A DNA stretch of 64,000 nucleotides, taken from IMG/VR virus record IMGVR_UViG_2724678985_000012. One strand, given 5' to 3'. A model generated the notes under the pieces. That model was not told the DNA's origin, made no database searches, and was given only the letters and a program-made list of their open reading frames with translations. This DNA comes from a virus (lineage: Duplodnaviria > Heunggongvirae > Uroviricota > Caudoviricetes). The position numbers and the translations under genes were made by a program. Positions 7,280 through 45,971 of the stretch are shown here, piece after piece; position 1 is the stretch's first letter; the number at the start of each line of letters is the position of its first letter.

Positions 7280-7294
7280 TTAGTTTTCTAACAT
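7280..7294 (+). promoter_or_regulatory. C1-type operator-like site (TTAGTTTTCTAACAT)
   Basis: Exact copy of the dispersed motif; second inverted copy with one mismatch at 7364-7378. Confidence 0.5.
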
Positions 7295-7474
7295 AAAATT
7301 ACTATGACAAATTTATGTCGAATAACAGAGTGAGTAAAGGATCGAACTGTGATTTTTTGTCATCAATTTTAGAAAACCAACCGTAGAAACCACACTTCGC
7401 AAATTAAAGACCATGAAGGCAACGTGTTACTGGTCATCATCAATCTATGATGGATTTAAAAAAATCGGCATTTT

Positions 7475-7508
7475 ATAACTTTAAATAATTGGCATTATTT
7501 AAAGTTAA
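7475..7508. other. lox-like recombination site (13-bp inverted arms, 8-bp spacer)
   Basis: ATAACTTTAAATA-ATTGGCAT-TATTTAAAGTTAa; outer ATAACTT identical to loxP arms, inner arm bases differ; 150 bp upstream of cre. Confidence 0.8.
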
Positions 7509-7516
7509 GCTATAAT
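7489..7516 (+). promoter_or_regulatory. Sigma70-like promoter overlapping lox spacer, directed toward cre
   Basis: TTGGCA, 16-bp spacer, TATAAT. Confidence 0.4.
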
Positions 7517-7659
7517 CATGGGTGGATGATCAGTGTTGACATCACTGAAAATACGTGCCTCGAATCAAAGGTTTGAATCTTGAAAATTAACTTATAGCTA
7601 CCCTGTCATTTTTATATTTTTCGCGTAGCGTCATCTGTATATAGAGGTTAAATAGTTTC

Positions 7660-8688
7660 ATGAGTGAATTAATTATCTCTGGCAGCTCCAGTGGTTTTCT
7701 GCGCAACATTGGCAAAGAGTACCAGGAGGCCGCAGAAAACTTTATGCGGTTCATGAATGACCAGGGGGCTTACGCGCCTAATACTTTGCGCGATCTCCGG
7801 TTAGTGTTTCACTCCTGGGCGAGATGGTGTCACGCTCGCCAGCTCGCCTGGTTCCCGATCTCTCCAGAGATGGCCCGCGAGTATTTTCTTCAGCTGCATG
7901 ATGCTGATCTGGCTTCGACCACCATTGATAAGCACTACGCCATGCTGAACATGCTGCTTTCGCATTGTGGCCTTCCGCCACTTTCGGATGATAAAAGTGT
8001 TTCTCTGGCTATGCGGCGCATCCGGCGTGAAGCGGCAACGGAAAAAGGCGAACGAACAGGCCAGGCTATACCGCTGCGGTGGGACGATCTGAAACTGCTC
8101 GACGTCCTGTTGTCCAGGTCAGAACGGCTGGTGGACCTGCGCAACCGGGCTTTTCTCTTTGTTGCATACAATACGCTGATGCGCATGTCTGAAATCTCGC
8201 GTATTCGTGTAGGAGATCTGGACCAAACAGGTGACACTGTCACGCTACATATTTCACACACGAAGACAATAACGACCGCCGCCGGGCTTGATAAGGTGCT
8301 TTCCCGTCGCACTACTGCTGTGCTGAATGACTGGCTGGATGTTTCCGGGCTTCGTGAACATCCTGACGCGGTGCTGTTCCCGCCGATACACCGTAGCAAT
8401 AAGGCCAGGATTACGACAACGCCCCTTACTGCACCTGCAATGGAGAAAATATTTAGTGACGCCTGGGTGTTGCTGAATAAAAGAGATGCCACTCCAAACA
8501 AGGGGAGATACCGGACGTGGACCGGGCATAGTGCTCGTGTCGGGGCTGCTATCGATATGGCAGAAAAGCAGGTGTCTATGGTGGAGATCATGCAGGAAGG
8601 AACCTGGAAGAAACCGGAAACACTTATGCGGTATCTGCGCCGTGGCGGCGTGTCTGTGGGGGCTAATAGCCGCCTGATGGATTCATAA
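7660..8688 (+). CDS. cre: Cre-like tyrosine site-specific recombinase
   Basis: 342 aa; alignable along its length to P1 Cre from memory (WFP, AFL..AYNTL.R..EI.RIRV.D, HSARVGAA.DMA, C-terminal Tyr in MRYLRR). Confidence 0.9.
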   Translation: MSELIISGSSSGFLRNIGKEYQEAAENFMRFMNDQGAYAPNTLRDLRLVFHSWARWCHARQLAWFPISPEMAREYFLQLHDADLASTTIDKHYAMLNMLLSHCGLPPLSDDKSVSLAMRRIRREAATEKGERTGQAIPLRWDDLKLLDVLLSRSERLVDLRNRAFLFVAYNTLMRMSEISRIRVGDLDQTGDTVTLHISHTKTITTAAGLDKVLSRRTTAVLNDWLDVSGLREHPDAVLFPPIHRSNKARITTTPLTAPAMEKIFSDAWVLLNKRDATPNKGRYRTWTGHSARVGAAIDMAEKQVSMVEIMQEGTWKKPETLMRYLRRGGVSVGANSRLMDS

Positions 8689-8761
8689 ATTAAATTTCTA
8701 ACACATCTTTTTAGATTGTTATCTTTGCTGTAAAGTACCCTCGCCTATTTCGGAGGGTGCT

Positions 8762-9106
8762 TTGCAGAGTCAAATCACGGAATCAAGACGCTTTAAGGTG
8801 GATGGTTACACCGTAACCTTCGCCGCTGGTGTTAAGAACAGTCATGCTGTCGTTGTGTTCGGCATCATGACCGGGCTTGAGGCCGTCCCTGTGTTTACCC
8901 TCGAAAAAAACTGGCGAAATCTGGAGGAAGCAGAAAGCTACGTCCGGAAAGTAACCATCATTGCCGCCGAAAAACTCCTGGCCCACTATCAGGAAAATTA
9001 TCGCACTATGGTCGAGAAGATTAATCTCGCTTTCACTCGCCCCACTACCGGCTTTATTGCACCGGATACTAATGCAGGTCGCTATCCTGCAAGGGGGCGT
9101 CGGTGA
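8762..9106 (+). CDS. Hypothetical protein (TTG start)
   Basis: 114-aa ORF with GGAGGG RBS; first gene of operon downstream of cre. Confidence 0.35.
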   Translation: MQSQITESRRFKVDGYTVTFAAGVKNSHAVVVFGIMTGLEAVPVFTLEKNWRNLEEAESYVRKVTIIAAEKLLAHYQENYRTMVEKINLAFTRPTTGFIAPDTNAGRYPARGRR

Positions 9107-9579
9107 AAACTTATTACACATCTCTGAATTGTTACCCGTCTTCCTATCCAGAATTATCCGGGAAGCTGTTAGCTCTATTAGCTAAAGCACCTACGGAATG
9201 GTTTAAGCCAGTCGTTATCAATCCACACTTCCTGGATTACGGATCTGTTCGCACTCGTAACGAACTCAAAAACCTACTGGCGCATGGATTCATTCGACAC
9301 CGTGCCGGGAAAGGCTATCAGTTAGCGATTGCGCCAGAAGAGGCCGTGCGGCTATTCGCATATCGTGACAGCCAGACAAAAGCTCGGGTAATAGCTCAAA
9401 TACTTCATAACGGCAGCACCTATGCCCGCCAGTTTGGCGGCGACACGTCGCAGTTCTTGCGGGCGGTGCGATCGCTGGAGGAGCAAGGAGTTATTGAAAG
9501 TTCCTGTCTTCCTGTTCCTACCGTTCCACATATCAAACGTCGGGTTTACACCTTCACGCAGAGAGCTAAAAAACAATGA
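9103..9579 (+). CDS. Hypothetical protein
   Basis: 158-aa ORF coupled to flanking genes. Confidence 0.4.
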   Translation: MKTYYTSLNCYPSSYPELSGKLLALLAKAPTEWFKPVVINPHFLDYGSVRTRNELKNLLAHGFIRHRAGKGYQLAIAPEEAVRLFAYRDSQTKARVIAQILHNGSTYARQFGGDTSQFLRAVRSLEEQGVIESSCLPVPTVPHIKRRVYTFTQRAKKQ

Positions 9580-10070
9580 TTTACGTAAAAGTGAAACGCC
9601 TACATCCGGCAGCAAAACTTCCAGCTTATGCCACCTCCGGATCGGCGGCGATGGATTTTGAGGCTGTTGAAATAAAACCATGCGTCGATAGCAATGGTGC
9701 AATTTCCTCAAGCTGGTGGGTGTATACCGGACTGGCTATGGAGATCCCGCCCGGCTGGTGTCTGAAACTCTATCCGCGATCCGGATTGGGCTGCAAAAAA
9801 CATACTCGCCTGGCTAACTGCGTAGGAATTATCGACTCCGATTATCGCGGCGAAATCATGGCAAAACTGATTACTGATCCCGGCGGGGAAGGCGTTTGTC
9901 TCAAGCCTGGAATGGCTGTCATGCAAGGAATTTTTGAACGAGTTGAACAAGTCTCACTAGTCGAGGTTGAGGAACTCAACGAAACGGAACGTGGTGCTGG
10001 TGGCTTTGGTAGCACATCGGAAGGCCACTTTGAAATTAAGCGTTCACCGCTTCAGTACGAAAAGTTATAA
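9576..10070 (+). CDS. dut: dUTPase (dUTP pyrophosphatase)
   Basis: 164 aa; motifs AAMDF, GIIDSDYRGE, C-terminal glycine-rich GGFGSTS. Confidence 0.8.
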   Translation: MIYVKVKRLHPAAKLPAYATSGSAAMDFEAVEIKPCVDSNGAISSSWWVYTGLAMEIPPGWCLKLYPRSGLGCKKHTRLANCVGIIDSDYRGEIMAKLITDPGGEGVCLKPGMAVMQGIFERVEQVSLVEVEELNETERGAGGFGSTSEGHFEIKRSPLQYEKL

Positions 10071-10084
10071 GCAGAGAAAAGACT

Positions 10085-10762
10085 ATGAATAACATGGCAA
10101 CGAAAGAGCTTTTTAAGTTCCTTCCCAAATACAAAGCTCACAAAAACGTTAGTGCATCGAAAATCAAAAATGTTGTTATTTTCGGAGTAACTGATGCCCC
10201 ACTTTGGGGCTGCATCGAACTCGTTGAACCAAAAGGGGCAACAGTTTGTGTTGACGCAATGTTTTTACAAAAACACCGACCAAAAACTGGCGGGTATCTG
10301 ATCGTTTATGAAAACGGTTATCTGTTCTATGCCCCGGAGAAACCATTTGAGGAACGCTATGGCCTGGTTAACGACGCCTCCAAAAATGGAACCACGGTCA
10401 TCATTACGGATGACAACGGCGTGATGATTAATCTTACCGGGAGCGTAACTATTTCTGCTGGTGGCATCACCACCCAGCAAGAAGAAATCGACCTTGAAGC
10501 AGCCGACTTTTCTGACGCGCTGATGTGGCTGAAGGATGGCAAGAAAGTTGCTCGACGCGGGTGGAACGGCGAAAACCAATTCTGCTGGCTGGTTCCTGAA
10601 GGACAGTACCCGGCACGAATGGAAGCCATTAAGGGATATTTCCCCGGCGACCTCGTTCCGTATGGTGCTTATTTCGCCTTAAAAAATGCACAAGGTGTAG
10701 TTGTTCCGTGGGTTCCTTCTGTAGGCGACTTACTGGCATGTGACTGGTTTGTAGTGGAGTGA
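10085..10762 (+). CDS. DUF2829-domain protein (Tad2-like fold candidate) with N-terminal extension
   Basis: 225 aa; C-terminal DFSDALMWLKDGKKVARRGWNGEN ... DLLACDW matches DUF2829 signature as recalled. Confidence 0.5.
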   Translation: MNNMATKELFKFLPKYKAHKNVSASKIKNVVIFGVTDAPLWGCIELVEPKGATVCVDAMFLQKHRPKTGGYLIVYENGYLFYAPEKPFEERYGLVNDASKNGTTVIITDDNGVMINLTGSVTISAGGITTQQEEIDLEAADFSDALMWLKDGKKVARRGWNGENQFCWLVPEGQYPARMEAIKGYFPGDLVPYGAYFALKNAQGVVVPWVPSVGDLLACDWFVVE

Positions 10763-10768
10763 TTTGAC

Positions 10769-11545
10769 ATGGAAAGCACCAAAACAATTCAATACCGCTT
10801 GCGTAATGGCCTGCTGGTGGCTGTTAACGCCGACATGTCACTGCCGTTTGACACGATTGAACGCACTATCATGACGTATCTCGGCTTTAATGAAGAGCTG
10901 AATGAAGAGCATGGCGTAGCTATATGGAGTGATGCAGACAGCGGCGTTCGTCGTTACATCACCGCCAGGGGCAAAGACTACTCTCTGGAAGAACTGTTTA
11001 CCCTTGCGCAGTCTTTCGAATGTGTAGCATTAGACCTGTTTAATGATCCTGCTATAGCGCAACGACTTATACGCGAGCTTGGGCTATCCGTTACACCAAT
11101 TATCTTTAAAAATGGCAGCCTGACTGGCACATGGCGCGTAGAACGCATCTCAAACTACCTTCCATATAACCGACAGTTAAATGGAGTAATCTCCGGCGTT
11201 AATCAGCCCGTAGCGTGTGAAAATGTAAACCTGGTTGTCGCTGTTTTGGCAACCGCATGTCGTGTTATCGGTTTGGCTAAACAGGCATTTATTCATTTCC
11301 CAAATGGTGCAGAAGGTAGCGCAGAGATTATCGCGTGTGATTTCGAATTTACCTGGATGCTACGCGAATATCTGGACCAAACAGTATTCCGTGCCGAAGA
11401 ACTGGATATGTATATCACGTCAACGATTCCAGACGATGTGCGAGCTGAAGCAATCGCTATAGCCAGGGCGAAATGCCGTGCGGCGATTGCAGAACGGGCC
11501 AAAGAAGAACAGTCCAATGATACAGCGGCAGAAGAGGTGAAATAA
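10769..11545 (+). CDS. Hypothetical protein
   Basis: 258-aa ORF ending at strong terminator. Confidence 0.45.
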   Translation: MESTKTIQYRLRNGLLVAVNADMSLPFDTIERTIMTYLGFNEELNEEHGVAIWSDADSGVRRYITARGKDYSLEELFTLAQSFECVALDLFNDPAIAQRLIRELGLSVTPIIFKNGSLTGTWRVERISNYLPYNRQLNGVISGVNQPVACENVNLVVAVLATACRVIGLAKQAFIHFPNGAEGSAEIIACDFEFTWMLREYLDQTVFRAEELDMYITSTIPDDVRAEAIAIARAKCRAAIAERAKEEQSNDTAAEEVK

Positions 11546-11546
11546 C

Positions 11547-11579
11547 AAAAAGCCCGCTTGGTATGGCGGGCTTCTTTTC
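11547..11579. terminator. Rho-independent terminator (bidirectional-like)
   Basis: AGCCCGC-ttggtatg-GCGGGCT followed by TCTTTTC, A-run upstream. Confidence 0.7.
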
Positions 11580-11796
11580 AAATACTGGAAGCACTTTGCC
11601 TGCTACCAAGCATTCTCTGTTTAAGCACAACCATTTCCTGACGGCATAACACAGCAATAGCGGTCCTGGCGCCAATTTGCTTACCAATCAGGTATTGCTT
11701 TACCTCGCGGCGACTCACGCCATCAAGAAGCATCTTTAACGCTTCACGGGACAATTTGTTGTATCTACGTGCCATTAATCTACTCCGCGGAACCAT
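11578..11796 (-). CDS. Possible small HTH protein downstream of doc
   Basis: 72-aa ORF with HTH-like [22 protein letters not shown]; overlaps doc 3' end; weak. Confidence 0.25.
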
Positions 11797-12160
11797 ACAA
11801 TCTACGTAACGTGTCGGCGACAGAAGATACAGATATCTCTCCGGTCGCAGCCCCTACGGTAAGGTCTGCCAGTTCAGGTGAATCAAATACCTGCACCCCG
11901 TTACGGCGTAGAAATAGCAGCGCACTGTTTAGCGCGGTACGCTTATTGGCATCATTGAATATATGCCCTCTCGCCGTAGCCACCAGGTAGGTGGCGGAGA
12001 CTTCGAAAAGGTCGGTGATCTCTTCGTAGGCAACTCTGGCCTGAACTCTCCCGATAATGGCCTCTGCCCTACCCGGATCTGACATGCCCGGCAGTCCGCC
12101 GTAGCGGCTTATATTCGCATCATGAAGCGCAATAAGTTCTTCCGGTGATATATGCCTCAT
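11780..12160 (-). CDS. doc: Doc toxin (Fic-fold kinase, death on curing)
   Basis: 126 aa, essentially P1 Doc as recalled ([22 protein letters not shown]...). Confidence 0.95.
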
Positions 12161-12381
12161 TATCGGTTAACCAGTTCCTTGTTGGTGGAATCCAGAGTGT
12201 CAAACAGAGATGCAAATTCGGCATCCAGCGCCGCTTTTTTGTAGGCTTCGAAAGTAGCCTTGCTGACAATTACTGCTGGCTCACGGCCTCTGCGGGTGAT
12301 TTCAACCTCTTCCCCGGCTTCAACATTGTTGAGCACTTCAGAAAAGTTGCCGCGCGCGGTACGGAAGTTAATGGATTGCAT
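12160..12381 (-). CDS. phd: Phd antitoxin
   Basis: [12 protein letters not shown]...ELVNR matches P1 Phd; ORF track adds two N-terminal residues (to 12387); stop overlaps doc start. Confidence 0.95.
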
Positions 12382-12453
12382 AAACACCTCGTGTACTCAT
12401 TATGTGTACACAATTATAAACCTCACAGGCATAAAGCACCAGCACTTTGCAGC

Positions 12454-12830
12454 TTAAATAACCGGACAATCATCAAACTCCCCACTTCGGGCATCATTGA
12501 TGACATGAGTGATCACACCAAAAACAGCATTACTTCCCGTGCATCCATCGTCATCTACTGGTAACGCCTCTTTCTTCCCGGTGCTTAAATCCTCCAGGTG
12601 CTGGCGCGGATACTTCCTGTATCTCTTTATGCGATATTCACCCTCCATAGCGCACACAAGCAGCGAACCATCAACTGGAGTAAGCGAAGAATCAACCACC
12701 AGCATATTCCCTCACGGTGATGGCTATCAGCTGCCCGCATGAAGTAGGTTGCTGATGGATGCCTGATTAGTTGCTGATCAAGAGAAATTCGGCTTTCAAC
12801 ATAATCCGCCGCAGGAGAAGGGAAGCCCAT
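12454..12830 (-). pseudogene. humD: humD (UmuD'-like S24 peptidase) interrupted by a frameshift
   Basis: N-terminal part (FPSPAADYVE...HPSATYFMRA) in ORF 12627..12830, C-terminal part (LVVDS...GEYRIKRY...VFGVITHV) in a different frame 12454..12705; about five residues missing at the junction. Confidence 0.6.
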
Positions 12831-12859
12831 AGCGTTTTCACCTCAATAATACTGTTCAT

Positions 12860-19298: not shown

Positions 19299-19340
19299 AA
19301 TGCATACCGACTCTGTTTTGTTCCGATCGGTAAAATAATA

Positions 19341-19355
19341 TGTTAGAAAACTAAA
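19341..19355 (-). promoter_or_regulatory. C1-type operator-like site (reverse orientation)
   Basis: TGTTAGAAAACTAAA, exact reverse complement of the motif; second partial copy at 19361-19368; upstream of minus-strand operon starting 19298. Confidence 0.5.
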
Positions 19356-19396
19356 ATCAATGTTCTAACGTGATTTTGAGTGCGTAAATGATTTGA

Positions 19397-21896: not shown

Positions 21897-22336
21897 TATG
21901 CAAAATAGACCGTTGCCACGCCGTTATAGTGATCAAACGATACGGCGTTTACTTCATAGCTGGCAGGGAGCTTCGAGCCGAGAACATATCCGGGCCACGT
22001 TTTCCATGGAATTTCTCTACTCTCACTATCCCCATATACCGTACATCCAAGTGAACCTACAGCCTCGTCAGAACGTTTGCCGCATGTTATGAAACCTATA
22101 TTTTTCTTGCCGGTCTTAATGGCGATTGGGTGAACACTGGCTGATGCATTGGCAGCACGCTGTGACTGTTGGTTTGCGATATTCGCAGAGTTCGCAGCAG
22201 CTACAGCAGCCGTGGTCGCGGCGGTAGATGCCACAATAACTGCTGAAGCCTGCGCCTGTTGGGTAATGGTCAGCAATGCCGCCACAAAAATCATCCTCTT
22301 CACTTGCCAGCTCCTTTGCGAATCTGTTCCGCCCAT
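21893..22336 (-). CDS. Secreted protein (signal peptide)
   Basis: 147 aa; MIFVAALLTITQQAQASA signal-like segment. Confidence 0.4.
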   Translation of the reverse strand: MGGTDSQRSWQVKRMIFVAALLTITQQAQASAVIVASTAATTAAVAAANSANIANQQSQRAANASASVHPIAIKTGKKNIGFITCGKRSDEAVGSLGCTVYGDSESREIPWKTWPGYVLGSKLPASYEVNAVSFDHYNGVATVYFAY

Positions 22337-22788
22337 TCTTCAAGGGATTTCTCCGCATATTCACCAGACAGGCCATCAATCGGATGCGCTTCATTAGCCA
22401 ACTCTTCTTTCGCTGACAAAATCATGCGTGTAACGTCGAAAACTTCACGCAAAGACTTATTGATAAATCCGTGATTGAACGCAGCAGCAAGACGGCTTGC
22501 GGTATAGTTAATCCCCTCGTTGCGAGCCGCCGCACGAATTTCAGCCAGAAAAGCATCGGTGGCTGGAGTTTCGCTGTGGTGCAGGGCATCGTTGATAATC
22601 ATTGCAGCAACTCCGGCCTGCCCTGCATCCGTGACCGACACATGCTCAAGAGTTACAGCCATTGCATGTTTCAGCCCAGCATTCTCCGCCGCTAGCGCAG
22701 CACACGCTTTCTCAAGTCGGGAAATTTCCGTTACATACTCAGCGTTACGCTCTGCCAGTTGTGCGGGCGTTAAACCTTCAGACTTCAT
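22300..22788 (-). CDS. Ead/Ea22-like protein (paralog)
   Basis: 162 aa; shares coiled coil and TPATDAFLAE C-terminal block with 21132..21896. Confidence 0.45.
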   Translation of the reverse strand: MKSEGLTPAQLAERNAEYVTEISRLEKACAALAAENAGLKHAMAVTLEHVSVTDAGQAGVAAMIINDALHHSETPATDAFLAEIRAAARNEGINYTASRLAAAFNHGFINKSLREVFDVTRMILSAKEELANEAHPIDGLSGEYAEKSLEEWAEQIRKGAGK

Positions 22789-23730: not shown

Positions 23731-23975
23731 AACATAAGCACTGCGAAAAGCTCAATACCAAGTTCAAGTAGCGCCAACGCCCCGAAAAACAACACATAGA
23801 ACAGGCCAATCTCATTCACAGATGGCTGGTGGATCGCACTTAAAGCTATAAGCATCATGTCCTCCAAACAGTTATCAGGAATGATATTAATGTTTTGTAT
23901 TAGAAAATCAATTTTGAATATCTAACCATTTTGATCAATCATAGAAAAATCGCTGAAAAGTAAGAGGCTGCCATC

Positions 23976-24554
23976 ATGCAGAAACAGAGCTATTGGGAGA
24001 AACAGAGACAAAAAGCCATGCAAAAATTGGCTGACCCGGCCTGGCGAGAGGAACAAAGGGCAAAGCGCCTTCAACAAGCTCAACGCCAGCAGCAGCGAGC
24101 GAGAGAAAAAGCCGCATCGCCTGAATATCGGCAAAAAAAAATTGAAAAAGCAAAGCAATATGACCAGCGGAGAAAAGAGAAAGCTGTATCCGCTCCGTCC
24201 AAAAAAACACGCACGTCACGCGGCCTGAAGGGCAGATCACTCACAGCCGATGAACGCCGGATACAGACCGCTATCGGTACTCTCCCCTGCATTGCCTGCC
24301 ATATTCACGGGAAACATAGCCCAGTGGTATCCCTGCACCATATCTTCGGGAGAACGGCAGAGAACGCACATAAATATGTCCTCCCTTTGTGTAAATGGCA
24401 CCACCAGTACGCAGCGCCAGCCGAGGTCCGAGAACAATATCCCTGGCTGGTCCCTGTTCATGCTGATGGAAAAATAGGCGGAAAAGCAGATTTCATACGG
24501 CACAATGCCGATGAAATGGCGTTGTATCAGATGGCGATTGAATTGATAAATTAG
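23976..24554 (+). CDS. ref: Ref recombination enhancement function, HNH endonuclease
   Basis: 192 aa; C-terminal GLKGR..ERRI...LPCIAC..HG...VSLHH..GRTA....LPLC.WHHQ.AAPAEVRE.YPWLVPVHADG matches P1 Ref. Confidence 0.85.
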   Translation: MQKQSYWEKQRQKAMQKLADPAWREEQRAKRLQQAQRQQQRAREKAASPEYRQKKIEKAKQYDQRRKEKAVSAPSKKTRTSRGLKGRSLTADERRIQTAIGTLPCIACHIHGKHSPVVSLHHIFGRTAENAHKYVLPLCKWHHQYAAPAEVREQYPWLVPVHADGKIGGKADFIRHNADEMALYQMAIELIN

Positions 24555-24565
24555 TTTTCTAACAT
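24551..24565 (+). promoter_or_regulatory. C1-type operator-like site
   Basis: TTAGTTTTCTAACAT exact; degenerate copy upstream of ref at 23896-23911. Confidence 0.5.
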
Positions 24566-24885
24566 TTTAAGTTGAATTGTGAATTTCCCCGATGTACATT
24601 CACTACCGATTGGTACACCGGTCAACTTTTTGAGACAAACTGTTTAGTTTTTCGTATTATTGCCGCCGCCATACCTATGGCGGTGCAATATAGGTGGCTG
24701 AAAAGCCCCCGTTGACTCACGGTGTTCCAGCCTTTATTGCGCCGCCACCAGACCGTGGAACAGTCGATGGCGGCTCCGAAAGCAAGGAGTCACTACACTA
24801 TGAACAACTACAGTCTTTTCCCATCACTCGTCGTCCACCACTCACGCGATAATCTGCATTCTTTACTCGCGCCGGGGGTGTCAAA

Positions 24886-25053: not shown

Positions 25054-25156
25054 AATACTGACTGTTGCGCCCTGGCATTATCGTGGGGTATATTTCTACG
25101 GCACCTTAGAAAAACGGGTGCCGGGATTGGAACCCCGGATAATGTCAAAGGCGACA

Positions 25157-25180
25157 CAGACGCCGAAAGCGTCTTTTTTT
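25157..25180 (+). terminator. Rho-independent terminator
   Basis: GACGC-cgaaa-GCGTC followed by T7 run. Confidence 0.75.
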
Positions 25181-25365
25181 GTGTCACGCCATCGCACAGC
25201 CATACGTAGCGTTTAGCTCAGAGATCAATGGTAGTGCTGGCTGGGCTGCCGAAAGGCAGGCCGGTTCCCTTTGACGCCGGTAGTTCCAACCCAGTCAGTG
25301 CTACCGCCATTGAGATTGGAACCTCACGCGGTAGCTCCTTAACTTAGTCAAAGGAGGCTGCCAAT

Positions 25366-25581
25366 ATGGCTACTATCCCTACCCCAACTCATTCTGAATT
25401 TATCTGGCGTTTCTATTCCTGCCAAAAACACCTGTATATCTGCGTCATGGCTGCTACCGAAGCAGAGGCGCGCTCATACCTTCCCGAAGAACCCTGCATT
25501 TTTGCTGCTCGCTTCACTCTTGATGCGATGGAGATCCTCAATTACTGGAATCTGCCGATGAACTGCGTGGAGGTGCACTGA
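25366..25581 (+). CDS. Icd-like (host cell division inhibitor) small protein
   Basis: 71 aa starting MATIPTPTHSEF with EAEAR...FAARF pattern recalled for Icd-like proteins; AGGAGG RBS. Confidence 0.5.
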   Translation: MATIPTPTHSEFIWRFYSCQKHLYICVMAATEAEARSYLPEEPCIFAARFTLDAMEILNYWNLPMNCVEVH

Positions 25582-26522
25582 TGAATCTGTCCATCTCTCA
25601 AAAAGCGACAATGACCAGTATTGAGATCGCGGAACTGGTGGGAAGTCGTCACTCTGATGTTAAACGCAGCATCGAAAGACTTGTTGCTAAAGGAGTTATC
25701 CAACATACGCCATTGGCTACAGTTGAGAATAATCAATCACTTAGCCCTAATAAATACACAAAAGCCTATTTCTTCGAAGGCGAACAAGGCAAGCGCGATA
25801 GTATTGTCGTCGTCGCGCAGCTCTCTCCCGAATTCACCGCCCGGCTGGTGGACCGCTGGCGCGAATTGGAGAATGCCCGGGTACAGTTAAAATCAAAAGC
25901 CGAAATTCTGGCTGAAATGGCGCAAATGCATCTTGAACATGAACGCCGGATCAACGCCGTAAATGCCCAGGTAGCCGAGGTATCGGCACAAGTGTCCAGG
26001 GTCGCTGAAACCGTTGAGCAAATCAAGAAAGGCAATATGCCGGAAGGCTACATTGGCTACCGCCAGCTGGCGGCAAAATGCGGCCTGACCGAAGCCAAAT
26101 GTCGCAACCTGGTCAACGCTTACCGGATTCCCACCGATACGCATGAGTTTTTAACTCCCGATGGTTTGCTTGCGCGACGCTCCATTGTGGCCCTGGCCCC
26201 CTTCCGGAAAGCCTTTAAGCAGGTGATGTCGGAGGCAGAACCACGCAATAAACGCTGGTATCATCCAAAGATGGGGATGTTTCAGGCAATCAACCATCCT
26301 GTGCCTGAAAGCCCAAAGGATAATCTGTCACTACATACCGCCAGAGAGAAGATCAGGACTGGATACGCAACAGTGTGTCGTCGTTCTTCCTGGCCTGAAG
26401 GTATATGGGTGTGGCCCGAAGGTGGATCACGAAAGCACTGGCGCACTATCCGGGATGGGAAAATCCATGCTATTGATTTAGCTCCAGAGGATGTTGTTGC
26501 TACGGACTGGATTGTTAGTTAA
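25581..26522 (+). CDS. Rha-family phage regulatory protein (possible antirepressor)
   Basis: 313 aa; N-terminal MTSIEIAELVGSRHSDVKRSIERL typical of Rha domain; coupled to icd-like ORF. Confidence 0.6.
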   Translation: MNLSISQKATMTSIEIAELVGSRHSDVKRSIERLVAKGVIQHTPLATVENNQSLSPNKYTKAYFFEGEQGKRDSIVVVAQLSPEFTARLVDRWRELENARVQLKSKAEILAEMAQMHLEHERRINAVNAQVAEVSAQVSRVAETVEQIKKGNMPEGYIGYRQLAAKCGLTEAKCRNLVNAYRIPTDTHEFLTPDGLLARRSIVALAPFRKAFKQVMSEAEPRNKRWYHPKMGMFQAINHPVPESPKDNLSLHTAREKIRTGYATVCRRSSWPEGIWVWPEGGSRKHWRTIRDGKIHAIDLAPEDVVATDWIVS

Positions 26523-27041: not shown

Positions 27042-27962
27042 TTACGAATCTTGCTGGCAATTCAGAAACATAAATGCCCGCTTGTCCGTCAAATCAGTGA
27101 CATAATATTCTCTCGTTCCTGTAGGTTTTATTCTACGGGCATATACAAACTTATGTACCGGTTGTTTATCTCCATAACTCACTTCTGTCCTAAACTCATC
27201 AACCACGCTACCATCTTTTTCAGTTTCCTTTCTCACTAGCTGATTTTCTAATACAGGCTTTGATTCGTCCATGCCACTAAAAGCATCCTGACCTGTGCTG
27301 TTGCCTCGGTTTCCGCGTGGTAAATCCCATGAAAAATAAGTGCCATAGTCAGTAATCACACGATCCCATGTTCCGGAATCCCCCATATAGTTAGAACGCT
27401 CCCCCTTGTAAGTTACAGCCACCTTACAGGCATACGTTTCACCATTATTTTTTTTATCATGTCCAGCCATGCTCGCTGTAGTTGCAGGAGTTGCAGGGGA
27501 ATTATGAATAGATGCGCTTACATCATCTTGCGTTAATTCCTCAACTGGAGCAAATTCATATATGGGTGTGCCGAGGCTATTTAAATATAACTTATATCTA
27601 ACCCTAAGCGCACTTCCATCAGAGAATTCATACGTTCCCAGACATTGGAGCTTATTTTTTTCTCTTATCTCATTGATCTGATTATAAGCATCAATTACAG
27701 AGATTGCTTCCTGATCGTCCTTCAGCAGTTCATTATAATCATCGATTAACATCTGTCTGGTTTTAGGGGCATTGCAGTCAATTTTGCTAAAATCATAAGC
27801 AAAGGCAAATGTGGGAACAGAGAGAGCAACAACAGTAGCAAGTATTGTTGAGGAACTTCTTTTTCCATTTTTTATAAAAAACATTTCATTAACTCCATAC
27901 TTTACCATCTTAGCCGCGAGCGCGGTCCCTAAAACCCTTAACTTCACTGCACAGACCTTCAT
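27042..27962 (-). CDS. Secreted protein of unknown function
   Basis: 306-aa ORF; probable start at 27884 (MFFIKNGKRSS...) giving a signal peptide; AT-rich. Confidence 0.45.
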   Translation of the reverse strand: MKVCAVKLRVLGTALAAKMVKYGVNEMFFIKNGKRSSSTILATVVALSVPTFAFAYDFSKIDCNAPKTRQMLIDDYNELLKDDQEAISVIDAYNQINEIREKNKLQCLGTYEFSDGSALRVRYKLYLNSLGTPIYEFAPVEELTQDDVSASIHNSPATPATTASMAGHDKKNNGETYACKVAVTYKGERSNYMGDSGTWDRVITDYGTYFSWDLPRGNRGNSTGQDAFSGMDESKPVLENQLVRKETEKDGSVVDEFRTEVSYGDKQPVHKFVYARRIKPTGTREYYVTDLTDKRAFMFLNCQQDS

Positions 27963-28175
27963 GCAATCAAAATGACTTTTATGTTATAAAAATAATCAGC
28001 CAAATCAACATGATTTAGGCCAAATTTCGGTCAAAAAATAAAATCCACAAAAAGTGGTTGACACTATTTTGGAAATCACAAACTGCACATAATCCATCGC
28101 GCTAACGGCTCCCGTTGAAGGTTCTTTTGACGATTAACTTTCAGCCGAAGCGCGGTAGGGAGTCATAACGCCAAA

Positions 28176-29018: not shown

Positions 29019-29211
29019 GTCATTCACTCCGCTTAATTTTTAATCTAATGCCAGCAAATGAAGCTGGCCCCCGCATAAAGATTAATGAAAGTCACTTGTC
29101 ACCAGTGAGGGGATTTATGAACCACATCCCCCTGAACTGGTGGCCTGTCTGTTTCTCGCATTTCACACCCTGCATACAGTTTCCACCAGGTTATGACTGA
29201 GAGGCTTTGTT

Positions 29212-32658: not shown

Positions 32659-32808
32659 TAGTCATTTGATCCTCCGTGATGATTACCGAATGCCATAACT
32701 ATAGCGCACCGTTGCACTGTGCGCAAGTGCATTTTATGAATTCCCCCTCCTTCATCCAAAATCACAATCTCCCGAAAATCTTCCTTTCGATACCTGACAG
32801 ATCGACCT

Positions 32809-36010: not shown

Positions 36011-36020
36011 AAAATGCACC

Positions 36021-36063
36021 CATTTGTGTTAGATAATTAATATGTATTTTCTAACACAAATGG
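36021..36063. promoter_or_regulatory. Palindromic operator-like element upstream of rdgC
   Basis: CATTTGTGTTAGA ... TCTAACACAAATG, 13-bp inverted repeat with 17-bp spacer; arms contain the TCTAACA operator core. Confidence 0.45.
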
Positions 36064-40482: not shown

Positions 40483-40515
40483 ACTTTTTAAGTTCTAAAA
40501 CCAACCTGAAAGACT

Positions 40516-40803
40516 TTATTTTGCTTCTTCAGACTCCGCTAACATGAGGATAGCATGGCGGATCATATTCAATTTGCTGCGATTATGCTTTTTACTTAAC
40601 GCATCAAGTACCTGGTACTCGTATTCATTGAAACCAACACGAATAGATTTAAAATCACGTGGAGCGTCCTTATCGAGCACTTTGTTGTCTTCTGGTTGCT
40701 CACCCGGCACCAAATCAGCCTTACTTGCAAAATCCTCAATTCGGCGTTCAAGATCGGGGTCTTTTACTTCGGGGGCTTTTACCGATTTACGAGGCTTAAT
40801 CAC
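40516..40803 (-). CDS. ParG-like small centromere-binding partition protein
   Basis: 95 aa, downstream of and overlapping parA; basic N-terminus, RHH-like C-terminus. Confidence 0.5.
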   Translation of the reverse strand: MIKPRKSVKAPEVKDPDLERRIEDFASKADLVPGEQPEDNKVLDKDAPRDFKSIRVGFNEYEYQVLDALSKKHNRSKLNMIRHAILMLAESEEAK

Positions 40804-41437
40804 TTAATAACTCCTTAACCAACATCTGGATTTCACCTTTAGCTTTCCCGTTGTCCATCTCAACAACGCCCTTCCCTTCAGCCATGCAATCGCGGTAAAC
40901 CTTACGATCACGAATGATGGTTTTCAGCAACTTCAGTTGCGGATATTCAGCCAGGTACTCTTTGGCCTCATTGGTTTCATTCACAACCGGATTGGATGGG
41001 GCCATTGTTAAGACTGCGAACGCCTTAATGCTAGGATTAGGCATCAGGTCCAAAGCCTCTTCAAACACTTCAACAAAGTGTGCCAGCGTGTCTAAATCTG
41101 GTTGAGATGGTCTGAATGGGACCAACACAATATCTGCAGCGGTTATGCCTGTACGCATCTCTTTGCTATCGCGCCCGGCTGTATCAACAACAACAAATTC
41201 ATAACGCTTATCCAGATCGAGAAGTGTTTCTCGAATATTACCAAACTTCTGGACACAATGAATAACAGGAGAAACCTCTGCCGTGTTACGGTCAGCTGCC
41301 CAGCGGGCAGCTGTTCCTTGCTTGTCTGCATCTAGTAACACTACATCCTTATTTGCGCGGGCAAGCTCCGCACAGATGTTTACGCTTGTGGTTGATTTTC
41401 CACAGCCACCTTTTTGGCTGACTACCAATATAATCAT
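40796..41437 (-). CDS. parA: ParA/ParF-type partition ATPase
   Basis: Deviant Walker A KGGCGKST; start taken at MIILVVSQKGG (ORF track extends to 41467). Confidence 0.8.
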   Translation of the reverse strand: MIILVVSQKGGCGKSTTSVNICAELARANKDVVLLDADKQGTAARWAADRNTAEVSPVIHCVQKFGNIRETLLDLDKRYEFVVVDTAGRDSKEMRTGITAADIVLVPFRPSQPDLDTLAHFVEVFEEALDLMPNPSIKAFAVLTMAPSNPVVNETNEAKEYLAEYPQLKLLKTIIRDRKVYRDCMAEGKGVVEMDNGKAKGEIQMLVKELLSD

Positions 41438-41467
41438 ATCCGTTCCTCGGTGTGATTTTGGTATCAA

Positions 41468-41670
41468 AACGGTTCCAGATAAGAGCCTTCTTGATGCGGG
41501 ACAGGCTCTATAATGGAGTCATGAATGTTTGGCAAAGTATAACATCAATCAGACCAAATACACCTTATATTGCATCCTATTTAACACGAAATCAGCCCCA
41601 AATTGGAACCAGATACAAAATTGCATCATAACAGCACCTAACTGGTTCCAGATTAACACCAATTAGACAC
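41468..41670. repeat. Centromere/operator-like repeats GG(T/A)(T/A)CCAGAT upstream of parA
   Basis: GGTTCCAGAT at 41471, GGAACCAGAT at 41605, GGTTCCAGAT at 41644. Confidence 0.4.
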
Positions 41671-41724
41671 CATTAAGGCATAAAAAAGGCTGCAATTTGC
41701 AGCCTTAAACCAGCACATTTTCTG

Positions 41725-42069
41725 TCAATCAGGTAGAGAGTCAGCCAGATTGCGCGCCGACGCGCTTTTGGCAACAACTTGCTCCTTCACTGGCTCAATG
41801 GAGGCAGGGCGCTCCTCAACCGCAGCTGGTAGTTCCAGGAAGGATGCCAGCATTTTTCGGATCAGCTCCGGGTTATTGTCTTCGGTCAGCAGGGAAGCCA
41901 GTAATCCTGGAAGCCTGCTATCGACTTCTCCCAGCGCAAGCCCTGCCAACAATGCGGTTCTTGCCATATCGCTATGTTTTTTTATCTTCTCGCTCGCCGC
42001 CTTTTCATTGGCATAAGCCTCTGGGCGAAGATAAATCATCACTTTCTTACGTTCCTGAGACATGGACAT
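41725..42069 (-). CDS. parR: ParR-like centromere-binding protein
   Basis: 114 aa immediately downstream of parM. Confidence 0.5.
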   Translation of the reverse strand: MSMSQERKKVMIYLRPEAYANEKAASEKIKKHSDMARTALLAGLALGEVDSRLPGLLASLLTEDNNPELIRKMLASFLELPAAVEERPASIEPVKEQVVAKSASARNLADSLPD

Positions 42070-42076
42070 TACCTCG

Positions 42077-43057
42077 TTAACCGATTGCTTTCAGGCCATG
42101 AACAAGAGCAAGTTGCGGGTCATCCGCCACGAAGAAACGGTCATCACGAATATTAACTTGCTCGCGAATTGCATCTGCCACCAGCGGTGCGCCACCACCG
42201 ATCACCATGACATGCGTATATCCTTTAAAGTCGCCAATCACATCAAGAACGCGGGTACGCAGACGGTCAATGCTTGCGGCAATGGCCTTTTTCACATCAC
42301 CAATCGCTGATGGGTCATTGATATTGTCGTTCAGATAATCTTCATCGTGGCGGTTAATAATGAGCTGATCAACATTGTAATTTGACGTTTCGGTATTGGC
42401 CCTTGCAAGTGCTTGCCTTACTTCCCTGGTGACCAGTGATACACCAAGATTCGAATCGCCAAAAACACGGGAAACTGCCGTCATTTGCCCGGCGACCATT
42501 GAAACATCAAGGGTAGTTCCACCCAAATCGACGATAAGAACAGAATGGGCAGGGTTCAGATTGTCGCACAGGCCAATTCCTGCCGGAATAGACTCCGGTC
42601 GTACCGTAACTTTCTTAATCGTGAACACATTGCCTTTATTCAGCGTGACGGGGCGCATAAGACTGGCTTTCTTGCGCTCGATGTTATCGAGATTGTATTG
42701 CGCGTCGTCGTCGTAAAACTCCGCCAGAGGCAGCGTGACCACAATTTCTACTTCCTGCGGCTCAATGCCACTTGTCAGCAGGGCATGGTGAACAGCCAGG
42801 ACGTTAAGCGGGCTGTATTGCCATTCCACATTATTCGTCGGCAGAACATCTGGCGATATCAAGTCGTATGAATACTTTTCGTCGTCAATGACATAGTTAA
42901 ACGGCTTGCCAGCACCAAATGTTGCTGACCATCCGCGCTTAAAGCTGTTAGGACTGATGTGAGTGCGAGTTTCCCCGTCGTGCTCCCACAGCATTTTGAT
43001 ATTGGTTGAACCATCATCGATAAAAATGCGCATCTTCTTGCTCCACTTCTGAGACAC
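42077..43057 (-). CDS. parM: ParM/StbA actin-like segregation ATPase
   Basis: MRIFIDDGSTNIK actin-fold phosphate-1 motif; probable start at 43033. Confidence 0.85.
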   Translation of the reverse strand: MSQKWSKKMRIFIDDGSTNIKMLWEHDGETRTHISPNSFKRGWSATFGAGKPFNYVIDDEKYSYDLISPDVLPTNNVEWQYSPLNVLAVHHALLTSGIEPQEVEIVVTLPLAEFYDDDAQYNLDNIERKKASLMRPVTLNKGNVFTIKKVTVRPESIPAGIGLCDNLNPAHSVLIVDLGGTTLDVSMVAGQMTAVSRVFGDSNLGVSLVTREVRQALARANTETSNYNVDQLIINRHDEDYLNDNINDPSAIGDVKKAIAASIDRLRTRVLDVIGDFKGYTHVMVIGGGAPLVADAIREQVNIRDDRFFVADDPQLALVHGLKAIG

Positions 43058-43058
43058 A

Positions 43059-43215
43059 TTTGAGAATCAAAATGTAATTTTAAAAGAGAAGCACCCAAAA
43101 ATCCACACCAAACGAGACAAAAAAAGAGCGCTTGTTGAGTTTATTTTGAGAATATCTTAATCACCCACTGAATGATGGCCTGATAGTGAGATTTATTTGA
43201 GAATGAATTGAGAAT
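43059..43215. repeat. parC-like centromere iterons (TTTGAGAAT)
   Basis: Copies at 43059, 43145, 43196 and 43207 upstream of parM. Confidence 0.5.
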
Positions 43216-43300
43216 ACAAAAATATTCCGAAATTTAACTCTCCGTTTGAATGACGAAATAACAAAGTGATGACAATAGGAGGATAACCAGGAGGTGAAGA

Positions 43301-43585
43301 ATGAGCGCAATAGCCACCAGCGACACCCTTTGTTCTGGTCACGGAGGATTTCCGCCGCGACTGGTAGCTGAAACCGTTCCCTGGTTCACCGTTAACGGTA
43401 AGCCAGTTGTTGTAGATGGTGCCATGTTTCCCAGTCACACTGACGGTAACAGTGCACACCCAGGGGCAGCTGTATCGACGCGAGTATGGTTTTCGATAGG
43501 TGGAAAGGGAGTTGTCTGTGTAGGCGATCCGCTTTCTTGTGGTTCTGTTATCGCCAACGGCGAGGATATTTTTCAGGTTGCATAA
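43301..43585 (+). CDS. PAAR-like spike-tip protein
   Basis: 94 aa; Gly/Cys/His-rich beta-rich sequence with HPGAA motif; AGGAGG RBS. Confidence 0.45.
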   Translation: MSAIATSDTLCSGHGGFPPRLVAETVPWFTVNGKPVVVDGAMFPSHTDGNSAHPGAAVSTRVWFSIGGKGVVCVGDPLSCGSVIANGEDIFQVA

Positions 43586-44388
43586 TGCTTGATTCAATAG
43601 GTGAAGTTAAAGCCTTCAAAATTCTGTCAGATGCCGGTATCTCTACACCAGAATCTATAACCATAAGCCGGGCAGCTTCTGTAAAAGCCTCATCGCTCGC
43701 CAGCGCCATACAGGGAATAGTTCACGCCGATAAAACCTATCCTGATTCTGTTTCGGCCTGGACTACTCAATTGCTTGGCTTTTCTGAACAGCTCAATGAG
43801 GCCAGCAAAGCGTCTTCATTACTGGCTGATTCTCTTTCCCCATACACCAAGCCATCAGAGCTGTTACAGATGAAGATTGGCTGGGAATGCTACGCAAAAG
43901 GTAACGAGCTGACCCCCATACCTGCTTTCGCCCTTGTTGAGGGAATGGGGAATGTTTCCATTCCGCAATCTCTAACGGACGCATTGACGGCGCTAAAACT
44001 TGATGCTCTGAAAACCGCCATGAACGCCATTAACGCAAAAATTGAAGCTGCCGGAAGTGCTGGTGGTGATAGCAATGGTGGGCAGGGTGGTACTGGGGGC
44101 GCTCAGGCTCCAGTCATTACTCAGGATGAAATTGATGCTTTACGGGAAGCAGTGACAGCCGCCGAAGTTTTACTCTCCGAAATTAACTCAGCAAGTGAGA
44201 GTGTCGTAGCCCTTGCAGGTCGCATTAAAACGTCAACCACTCAGGCAACCAAAGGTTTAGAGAACGCTGTCGCCATCACGTTAACTGGTTCTCTACTGGA
44301 TGATGCAGTAATGAGTCCGGCAATCAGTTTAATCATGCCACAAGGCGTTATCGACGCACTCCAAACGAACACCAAAAAGGAACCATAG
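43585..44388 (+). CDS. Hypothetical protein
   Basis: 268 aa from MLDSIGEV; start overlaps PAAR stop (TAATG). Confidence 0.4.
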   Translation: MLDSIGEVKAFKILSDAGISTPESITISRAASVKASSLASAIQGIVHADKTYPDSVSAWTTQLLGFSEQLNEASKASSLLADSLSPYTKPSELLQMKIGWECYAKGNELTPIPAFALVEGMGNVSIPQSLTDALTALKLDALKTAMNAINAKIEAAGSAGGDSNGGQGGTGGAQAPVITQDEIDALREAVTAAEVLLSEINSASESVVALAGRIKTSTTQATKGLENAVAITLTGSLLDDAVMSPAISLIMPQGVIDALQTNTKKEP

Positions 44389-44446
44389 CAACACCACTTA
44401 GGAACACAAAAGGATGTAAATTGGTACATGTTTAACACCAAAAAAA

Positions 44447-44920
44447 ATGAACCTGAAGAGGATGGTTTTGAAAAAGATAATTTTGATTGTAATTGCGCTT
44501 TTAGCCATTTCTGGAATTTACCGAACAACGACGGCAGTTATCGAACACATCAGGTATGTCCGATCGCTTGAAGACTCAAAATCACAACTGGAAAGCACGA
44601 ACAACACGCTTTCTACCGCATTACAGTTAAGTGAGAACGCTCGCTCAGCCATGCTGACCGAAAACGAAAGAATTAAAGCACTGGAAAAGGAGTACCAGCG
44701 CAAAACAGCAGAACTGAATGCCAACCTAATCAAACAACGGGAGGAAAGCCAGAATGAAATCACTCGCCTTGAAAATGCGTTACGCCGTGCTGGGATTAAC
44801 GATGTGCGTGTGCCTGATGACGTTATCAGGATGCAGCGGGAACGGGCAAAAGCCATCAACCAGCGTGCCAGTGAAAATTACCGTAGAAGCCACCAGCAAG
44901 CCGCAGGCAAATCTGATTGA
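44447..44920 (+). CDS. Rz-like inner-membrane spanin
   Basis: 157 aa; N-terminal TM anchor then coiled coil. Confidence 0.55.
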   Translation: MNLKRMVLKKIILIVIALLAISGIYRTTTAVIEHIRYVRSLEDSKSQLESTNNTLSTALQLSENARSAMLTENERIKALEKEYQRKTAELNANLIKQREESQNEITRLENALRRAGINDVRVPDDVIRMQRERAKAINQRASENYRRSHQQAAGKSD

Positions 44921-45086
44921 TTACTCCCCTTGTTTAGTGCCAGAAGACACGCCAGTGCTGTTAAACAAGTATCCGACATACGCTGAACAGCTATTCAGCA
45001 CGATCGACGAATGCAACCAACGAAACGCACTGAATAACCAAAGAAACAGGGAGATTTGGGAAGGGAAGGGGGATCAAGGCTCCTGA
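44775..45086 (+). CDS. Rz1-like outer-membrane lipoprotein spanin, embedded in +1 frame of Rz
   Basis: Lipobox LSGC, Pro-rich; overlaps the 3' half of Rz ORF. Confidence 0.55.
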   Translation: MRYAVLGLTMCVCLMTLSGCSGNGQKPSTSVPVKITVEATSKPQANLIDYSPCLVPEDTPVLLNKYPTYAEQLFSTIDECNQRNALNNQRNREIWEGKGDQGS

Positions 45087-45532
45087 AGCCAGATGTCCTG
45101 GCTGTCAGCTTCTTCGAAACCGTGACAGACGTTAAAGTCACTCAAACGATACTGACGCTGACGGCCCCTATTTCGCTCATGCCAATGCATATATCCACCA
45201 GCAAATGCCAGCGGACAATCGCTATAGTCTATGTAACCAATACCATTCCCCAAACGTGCTTCGCGCGCACCAGCTTTCCAGGACAGTAGAAAAGAGTCAC
45301 GATCCGCCAGCATAACAACAAAATCGTCCGGATCTCCGATACAGTGAAGAATACCTGCCTTACATAACTGCTTGAGCGCTTTTGACTGGCTCAGGATGTC
45401 TTCTCCGTAATACTGAAAACAATCATCAACAACAGCGGGATAGCCTGCCGGGGGATTCAGGCTGGTTGGTATAGCTGACGCGATCGCCAGCATTAAGCGA
45501 TATTGTGTTTTTGATGGGTTAACGTGACTCAT
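45074..45532 (-). CDS. Hypothetical protein
   Basis: 152-aa ORF. Confidence 0.4.
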   Translation of the reverse strand: MSHVNPSKTQYRLMLAIASAIPTSLNPPAGYPAVVDDCFQYYGEDILSQSKALKQLCKAGILHCIGDPDDFVVMLADRDSFLLSWKAGAREARLGNGIGYIDYSDCPLAFAGGYMHWHERNRGRQRQYRLSDFNVCHGFEEADSQDIWLQEP

Positions 45533-45548
45533 TTTGTCCCTTGTTTAC

Positions 45549-45941
45549 TCATTGTCGCCATGCATTTTTTAACTCAGGAATATCTGCCATTTCAATTAAC
45601 TTGCGAAGTCCAGCACTGACTTTCCCATTGCCAACCATAGCAAGCCAATCTCTTACAGCTTTCGGCATGTAGAGCGTTGCAGTTACCGGCTCTTCAACCC
45701 TGGCAGGACATCCGCATACAGGCCATTTAATTGATTCCATAACTTCGGATGCCGGGGTGAGGGCGGGGACATTGAGTATATCTCTACCAGAAAACTGGAT
45801 AACGATCCGTTCAGCGAGCGAGAGTATCTCACTTTCGGCAAGAATTGATGCCAACTGCGCCTCAACAAGAAAGCGACTTGTTGTGTTCAGAGAGTGGCTC
45901 TTAGCGCCATTTTTATACGAAACAAAGATTCGATACGCCAT
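45549..45941 (-). CDS. Hypothetical protein (operator-controlled)
   Basis: 130-aa ORF with operator-like site just upstream. Confidence 0.4.
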   Translation of the reverse strand: MAYRIFVSYKNGAKSHSLNTTSRFLVEAQLASILAESEILSLAERIVIQFSGRDILNVPALTPASEVMESIKWPVCGCPARVEEPVTATLYMPKAVRDWLAMVGNGKVSAGLRKLIEMADIPELKNAWRQ

Positions 45942-45956
45942 AACTCTAATGATTTG

Positions 45957-45971
45957 TGTTAGAAAACTAAA
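45957..45971 (-). promoter_or_regulatory. C1-type operator-like site (reverse orientation)
   Basis: TGTTAGAAAACTAAA exact reverse complement of motif. Confidence 0.5.

Follow-up and report, generated by a model that had tools for sequence, protein, structure and literature searches.

The 64,000 nucleotides analysed here (IMG/VR virus record IMGVR_UViG_2724678985_000012; hereafter the window) are, judging by their sequence, those of a phage D6-like plasmid prophage of the P1 family. Dispersed through the window is a short motif, TTAGTTTTCTAACA, which is probably the operator of the D6-type repressor C1, the predicted product of the open reading frame (ORF) at 6228-7265(-); we place the probability of this reading at about 0.85. 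The sites exist, are non-random, lie between genes, are conserved, occupy positions orthologous to those of the P1 operators, and are mutually exclusive with the P1 operator sequence. Together the data support a C1/operator system of the P1 kind, expected to be heteroimmune to P1 itself, alike in logic and in the places occupied, and different in sequence and in the geometry of site pairing.

The exact 14-mer occurs four times, at 7280-7293(+), 19341-19354(-), 24551-24564(+) and 45957-45970(-), which confirms the four exact copies listed in an earlier reading of this DNA (the original prediction). Comparison was made to a null model based on 100 dinucleotide shuffles, none of which contained a single copy. 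Allowing up to two mismatches produced nine matches where 0.55 are expected, a number reached in none of the 100 shuffles; with up to three mismatches the signal is diluted (13 versus 6.5). The scan against shuffled sequence, proposed in the original prediction as a check, thus returned counts in excess of the shuffles. In an unbiased count of k-mers the motif ranks first among repeated 12-mers, and Chi alone is over-represented to a comparable degree. Sequences flanking the motif differ between copies, showing that the copies are not parts of longer repeats.

In order to describe the full motif, 14 sites from the window and from the region found only in D6 were aligned, and a position weight matrix (PWM) of approximately 16 nt was derived. 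The resulting motif, TTAGTTTTCTAACAYA, has invariant T6, T8, C9, T10, A11, A12 and A14. A PWM scan of the window is bimodal: 12 sites score 15.5 or more and the next best scores 8.4, where the null model gives 0.43 sites at 14 or above. All but one of the 12 sites fall between genes or reach no further into coding sequence than a stop codon, in a window with a coding fraction of 0.898 (P=1.4e-10); the motif does not, then, occur at similar frequency within coding sequence, the finding that the original prediction had named as telling against it. The degenerate copies that it listed all exist, although the coordinates require correction: the copy at 2847-2860 lies as given, while others lie at 7367-7380(-) rather than 7364-7378, at 8690-8703 rather than 8692-8705, and at 23898-23911(-). 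The PWM adds two sites absent from that list, 27980-27995(-) and the intragenic 27240-27255(+). We recognise nine confident operator loci in the window and two possible ones. The D6 genome carries 16 sites (counted as half-sites) where 0.8 are expected, and every site in the window has a counterpart in D6.

Many sites possess an inverted partner. Scoring for such a partner at offsets from -2 to 8 gave positive values only at a spacer of 2 bp; values at all other offsets range from -8 to -47. Operators are thus monovalent or bivalent, the latter with the arrangement 14+2+14, a single fixed register found at about half of the loci. At a bivalent locus two half-sites are inverted with their TTAG ends 2 bp apart and their TCTAA cores 21 bp apart; the flanks carry mirrored GTTAG at -14 to -10 and A at -2. 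Scores at the 2-bp spacer are highest for the pair 36025/36043 (23 and 20), with partners scoring 7.2 at 2847, 5.8 at 23896 and 3.4 at 19339. The inverted pair reported earlier before rdgC is indeed there, at 36027-36040(-) and 36043-36056(+), within an inverted repeat with 18-nt arms (36020-36037 and 36046-36063); this operator forms a palindrome whose arms are 94% complementary. The description of the operator as asymmetric accordingly holds for single half-sites and fails for the half or so of loci at which a partner is present in the 14+2+14 register.

Conservation was assessed across alleles of the repressor. The family is present on 149 plasmid records, and the plasmids provide an allelic series with identities of at least 99%, about 90%, about 80%, 68-70% and 24-30%. 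When the spacer between c1 and dre is aligned for the 100, 90, 80, 70 and 68% classes, a stretch of some 130 columns is scrambled, and within it TTTTCTAA (the site at 7365) and ATGTTAGAAAA (the site at 7280) are invariant. The sites at lpa, at c1 and 3' of dre are present in the 80% and 70% classes. A plasmid of Shigella dysenteriae, whose C1 is 70% identical, retains sites at the orf52, rdgC, ref-stop, ref-5' and ppp/pdcB junctions, three of which are clean 14+2+14 pairs. Alignments at four junctions show the same pattern, with arms conserved, flanks scrambled and the centre between the arms varying freely. At lpa the stronger half of the operator switches sides between lineages, which argues that both halves matter.

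The nature of the locations occupied is particularly informative. C1 of phage P1 acts at 22 dispersed operators with an asymmetric 17-bp consensus, ATTGCTCTAATAAATTT, and represses lpa, whose product drives the late promoters (PMC8546580). Using the positions of every C1 operator annotated in the P1 record (AF234173), we compared the junctions at which operators lie in the two phages. In our analysis the junctions shared with annotated P1 C1 operators make the strongest argument that C1 is the binder.

The predicted operator before lpa (2829-2862), at the place of P1 Olpa, comprises a strong half at 2847-2862(+) and a weak inverted partner at 2829-2844(-), with PWM scores of 23.5 and 7.2; it is present also in the 90% allele class, and forms a clean 14+2+14 pair in the 80% class. 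The late-promoter activator gene itself lies at 2939-3331(+), as annotated in D6, and its product is 31% identical to P1 Lpa (E=1e-16). This is the most consequential of the targets, and one that the original prediction had left unnamed. A predicted c1-proximal operator, an exact copy at 7280-7295(+), lies 15 bp upstream of the c1 start codon (P1 Oc1ab), and a second predicted operator in the c1-rox-dre spacer, at 7365-7380(-) (PWM 19.3), corresponds to P1 Oc1c-e. Between the two is a candidate c1 promoter (Pc1), TTTACT-17-TAAATT at 7338-7310(-), conserved across the aligned alleles; the first site lies downstream of it and the second upstream. Two base pairs past the dre stop codon, and before the orf117-orf116-dut operon, is a predicted operator at 8690-8705(+) (PWM 23.9), also kept in the 90% class and overlapped by a candidate promoter, CTAACA-16-TG-TATCTT.

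Between ppp and a pdcB-like gene a predicted operator spans 19339-19372, with an exact copy as the strong half at 19339-19354(-) and a weak half at 19357-19372(+); the same junction in the Shigella plasmid carries a full bivalent pair. The divergent region between ref(+) and a leftward accessory operon holds a predicted operator at 23896-23929 (P1 Oref), formed by a strong half at 23896-23911(-) and a partner at 23914-23929(+), with PWM scores of 21.9 and 5.8. It stands as a conserved island between scrambled flanks and is fully bivalent in the Shigella plasmid. The exact copy at 24551-24566(+) is a predicted operator on the stop codon of ref (23976-24554) that faces a set of small ORFs and the isrK/C4/icd/ant module; a candidate promoter, TTGAAT-16-TAACAT at 24538-24565, lies over it. 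In P1, too, the ref stop codon is overlapped by an operator, Omat, and the location before the C4/icd/ant module is that of P1 Oc4.

A possible weaker operator, 27980-27995(-), lies before a simB-like gene, in a divergent region shared with mat. Its score is 15.5, it breaks the invariant C9 and it is accompanied by a candidate promoter, TTGATT-16-TAACAT; it is conserved in D6, and no counterpart was found in the Shigella plasmid. The sole intragenic site, 27240-27255(+) (PWM 16.2), is a possible weak site within the simB-like ORF at 27042-27962(-). Before hrdC/rdgC-dcm-dmt is the predicted bivalent operator at 36020-36063, with halves at 36025-36040(-) and 36043-36058(+) scoring 23.0 and 20.1, at the place of P1 Odmt. 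The last, an exact copy at 45955-45970(-) with a score of 26.9, is predicted to serve a two-gene minus-strand operon (D6 orf52/orf53) divergent from the capsid gene 23; it is conserved in D6, with one mismatch, and in the Shigella plasmid. Sites had earlier been placed before the accessory operon, ref, the immI-like region, rdgC and the minus-strand operon. These assignments stand, except that 24551 lies after ref and the site before this gene is 23896-23929. Correspondence to P1 extends to sites of the D6 genome at pmgR/pmgS (P1 OpmgR; D6 10318), just past pmgS (P1 OpmgT; D6 9069) and just past repL (P1 Orlf; D6 21263).

The module faced by the operator at 24551 resembles P1 immI. An isrK-like Hfq-binding RNA (25101-25179(+); Rfam RF01394, 62.7 bits) is located immediately upstream of a C4 antisense RNA (25224-25311(+); Rfam RF01695, 77.1 bits), the two together forming the leader of an operon of icd (25366-25581(+)) and the antirepressor gene ant (25581-26522(+)), both genes as annotated in D6. 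The predicted operator lies about 550-670 bp upstream, and the elements of P1 immI – C4, icd, antirepressor and a preceding C1 operator – thus all have counterparts in the window, the operator being a predicted one. The second immI copy of D6 also has a site, again that at D6 21263.

The presumed binder, c1 (6228-7265(-)), encodes 345 amino acids (aa) and its product is 100% identical to C1 of D6, annotated in AY753669 as 'phage repressor, similar to C1 of P1'. Gene order is pacB (4692-6200), c1, rox (about 7476-7507) and dre (7660-8688); P1 has the order pacB, c1, coi, lox, cre, so that D6-type c1 likewise lies between pacB and the recombination module. BLASTP gives 21% identity to P1 C1 over 240 aa (pairwise E=2e-8). 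The NCBIfam model NF041318 (phage_rep_C1) matches residues 7-240 of 345 across profile positions 8-245 of 283, with 25.4 bits (E=8.9e-6); P1 C1 scores 607 bits, and with the family cutoff at 500 bits the D6-type C1 is a remote homologue of P1 C1 rather than an equivalog. Searches of Pfam and PDB with the C1 product returned no family and no relative, and its PHROGs family is one of unknown function. The last 100 or so codons (6228-6527) form a C-terminal extension without counterpart in P1 C1. This extension is a candidate dimerisation domain, which could explain the paired half-sites.

Repressor homology, the P1 junctions, mutual exclusivity and the footprints in the alignments all favour the proposal that a C1-type repressor encoded by 6228-7265 has a dispersed set of operators. 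Several considerations weigh against it. We infer, rather than observe, that C1 is the binder, that binding represses and that particular promoters are overlapped. P1 C1 is only a distant homologue (25 bits, with the cutoff at 500), and a tblastn search of C1 against phages matches D6 only and not P1. Ten of the 12 sites detected by the PWM were also in its training set. Partners known from P1 are missing: no Coi-like partner was found, there being no sense-orientation ORF of at least 35 aa upstream of c1, and no Lxc-like partner, the D6 ORF at the lxc-syntenic position being unlike P1 Lxc (these tests do not extend to remote or relocated analogues). P1 C1 controls repL; upstream of D6 repL (22294-22493) there is no good site, the closest approach being TTAAATTGCTAACA at 22466-22479, in which an invariant position is broken. 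A strict sigma-70 scan found no consensus promoter on any site. Overlaps with promoters appear only with relaxed 8/12 matches, at 8690, 19339, 23896, 24551, 27980 and 36025, and such matches are common in AT-rich DNA.

That some other phage DNA-binding protein binds the motif while C1 acts elsewhere is improbable. Candidates would be 'antirepressors' of the Rha/Roi/KilA type, a helix-turn-helix protein of an addiction module, or Lpa. The link between motif and C1 is an indirect one and, since most regulators differ between P1 and D6, covariation of operator and repressor is not unique to C1. This also weighs against C1 as binder. The sites, two of which lie around c1 itself, nonetheless occupy junctions where P1 C1 operators have been defined by experiment, and in a Leclercia clade with a C1 of 30% identity a different motif is found at the same c1-proximal junctions. 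Lpa invites separate consideration: being only 31% identical to its P1 counterpart, D6-type Lpa must read a different site too, which might have been the motif. We rejected this possibility. The P1 late box, AACAAGTGACTT-N-TAnAAT, has one good copy in the window, and de novo comparison of regions upstream of the late genes 23, 26, 7, pmgB, R and mat revealed a common box, AAATCACAnnCT-N3-5-TAnnnT, always on the transcribed strand and unrelated to the motif. A distinct box before the late operons 23, 7, pmgB, R and mat fits the role of Lpa and argues that Lpa does not bind the motif; no motif site stands in sense orientation ahead of a structural late operon.

Very improbable is a reading of the motif as a shared promoter element or host-factor site, such as an unusual -10/-35 arrangement or the target of a nucleoid protein. 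Its end, TAACAT/TAACAC, resembles a -10 hexamer, the relaxed promoters TTGAAT-16-TAACAT and TTGATT-16-TAACAT at 24551 and 27980 incorporate it, and most strong halves are directed at the downstream gene. However, 16 conserved positions with an inverted partner in fixed register far exceed what a promoter needs, and palindrome arms are conserved about a variable centre. Placement is moreover inconsistent, the motif lying in the spacer at 19339, at the -10 at 24551 and downstream of +1 at 7280, and the core is absent from P1 even though hosts, RNA polymerase and host factors are the same. Barely credible, finally, is the notion that the copies are functionless, either chance matches in AT-rich DNA or leftovers of recombination at module boundaries. 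Motif and intergenic DNA are both AT-rich and several sites do sit at mosaic module junctions, but chance alone, as modelled by shuffling, yielded no exact copy, the scores are bimodal, the core is kept where the neighbouring spacer is scrambled, the flanks are unrelated and the register of the dyad is fixed. The operator of D6-type C1 is the reading that we retain.

While the element is maintained as a plasmid prophage, C1 would sit at about ten loci scattered through the window, and at about 16 half-sites per D6 genome, each locus consisting of the 16-nt half-site TTAGTTTTCTAACAYA, alone or as two inverted copies. By blocking lpa, C1 would block all late morphogenesis and lysis operons; with an operator at lpa the regulon would be a cascade, as in P1. 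The two sites that bracket candidate Pc1 lead us to propose autoregulation, with C1 repressing its own gene. Further predicted targets are the dre-distal dut operon, ref and, divergent from it, the 'lambdoid' accessory operon (which has a further site inside it, before pdcB), the immI-like C4/icd/antirepressor module, hrdC-dcm-dmt, orf52-53 and, possibly, simB/mat.

Comparison to known switches brings out both likeness and difference. As with C1 of P1 and P7, the D6-type protein is a putative master repressor encoded between pacB and a recombination module, with some 15-22 operators spread over a plasmid prophage of about 90 kb, a mixture of monovalent and bivalent sites, TCTAA within the invariant core and the logic of a cascade from C1 through lpa to the late promoters. 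P1 C1 differs in that it shares only 21% identity, lacks the roughly 100 additional C-terminal residues of the D6-type side, and reads operators with unrelated flanks. The geometry of pairing also differs: in P1 a bivalent operator spans 28 bp and consists of two 17-mers that share 6 bp, with TCTAA facing inward and cores 13 bp apart, whereas those of D6 type are 14+2+14, with TCTAA facing outward and cores 21 bp apart. The window contains no match to the P1 consensus at up to three mismatches and the 94 kb of P1 contain no match to the D6 core. With no P1 consensus match in the window, the element is expected to be heteroimmune to P1, with a specificity of its own. Lambda CI/Cro resembles the proposed system in that a prophage repressor silences lytic genes and autoregulates, using half-sites arranged as inverted repeats. 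In lambda, however, the operators are confined to two clusters, one on either side of the repressor gene, and serve two early promoters, whereas D6-type sites are spread over the whole genome, each predicted to guard an operon of its own, and often consist of one half-site only. The D6 GenBank records AY753669 and MF356679 contain no operator annotation, and neither the motif string nor descriptions of D6 operators or immunity were found in the accessible literature, which did not include the D6 genome paper, so that an earlier description is possible.

As to the element itself, a 20-kb slice of the window shows 95% identity to Escherichia phage D6 (MF356679), and the same slice shows about 97.5% identity, over 95% of its length, to plasmids of about 93 kb from E. 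coli and Salmonella. The window corresponds roughly to D6 34.6-91.2 kb plus 0-7.5 kb, in reversed orientation. The two have the identical c1, rox/dre, lpa, pacAB and two immI-like regions in common, and differ by indels and at the left end, where the window (1-1700) has an ORF of 347 aa at 135-1178(+) and a tRNA at 1333-1405, in place of the tciA/tciB and different tRNAs found in D6. Overlapping the rox site and directed at dre, at 7489-7516(+), is a sigma-70 promoter close to consensus, TTGGCA-16-TATAAT (11/12). Among the 10-11-mers of the window, Chi (GCTGGTGG) and its extensions show the strongest over-representation, on both strands and throughout the sequence (for example at 1246, 4811, 10455, 10811, 13252, 33798, 35757, 44057, 47361 and 50517).

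Late boxes were also located. Copies of the candidate D6-type box AAATCACAnnCT at 28073-28084, 32759-32770, 46030-46041, 54664-54675 and 62040-62051 (all +), and also at 53034-53045, include those upstream of the late operons mat, gene 7, gene 23, pmgB/sit and R. The region upstream of mat thus combines a late box with the weak operator at 27980, recalling the dual control of P1 mat. The single good P1-type late box (ACAAGTGACT...TAATCT), at 29078-29099(-), lies between mat and gene 26, points leftward and recalls the bidirectional LP26/LPpmgL box of P1.

The original prediction had pointed to a TCTAA core shared with the P1 operator. The resemblance looks real, the invariant columns being C.CTAAT in P1 operators and T.TCTAA.A in those of D6 type, although the geometry of paired sites differs. 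The D6 motif was not found near c1 of the Leclercia plasmid NZ_CP042508, whose C1 is 30% identical; this plasmid has a dispersed motif of its own, atagaTTCTAAGGCTTTT, with six sites where 1.15 are expected, all intergenic (22207, 25664, 40511, 40655, 41910 and 45928), two of them upstream of c1 and one just past a cre-like gene. In the Pantoea plasmid CP009882 (C1 about 30% identical), from which the D6 motif is likewise missing, the pattern WTTCTAARW occurs 11 times where 1.7 are expected, at c1, the recombinase and other intergenic junctions (4219, 5568, 5780 and eight more). This pattern is junction-derived, post hoc and AT-biased, and provides a lead only; an unbiased repeat search of the same plasmid was swamped by GC-rich coding repeats, and only the junction-derived pattern was enriched. 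The recurrence of TCTAA in the Leclercia and Pantoea motifs makes the core look like a family trait.

A broader proposal, which we offer tentatively and consider somewhat less likely to be right than wrong, is that TCTAA is read by all C1-family repressors of P1-like phage-plasmids, with the flanks alone setting immunity specificity: ATTGC-TCTAA-TAAATTT in P1, TTAGTTT-TCTAA-CAYA in the D6 type, ATAGAT-TCTAA-GGCTTTT in the Leclercia type and WT-TCTAA-RW in the Pantoea type. Positions at junctions would be fixed and the sequences replaced wholesale. In contrast to P1 C1, the D6-type protein, longer by some 100 residues at its C-terminus, would engage the two halves of a paired site as a dimer, in an outward-facing arrangement and at a distance of two helical turns.

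E. coli, Salmonella and Shigella commonly carry D6-like phage-plasmids, whose lysis-lysogeny switch, to our knowledge, has not been dissected so far. From the operator set one can predict the genes kept silent in the carrier state, among them ref, the methylases and the antirepressor modules, and the set would explain heteroimmunity with P1. To the P1-based toolbox it may add a further C1/operator pair, orthogonal to the first, beside the already exploited Dre/rox, the counterpart of Cre/lox. The system would, in addition, constitute a natural experiment in which a dispersed regulon has shifted its specificity at about 15 sites at once, with their positions unmoved.

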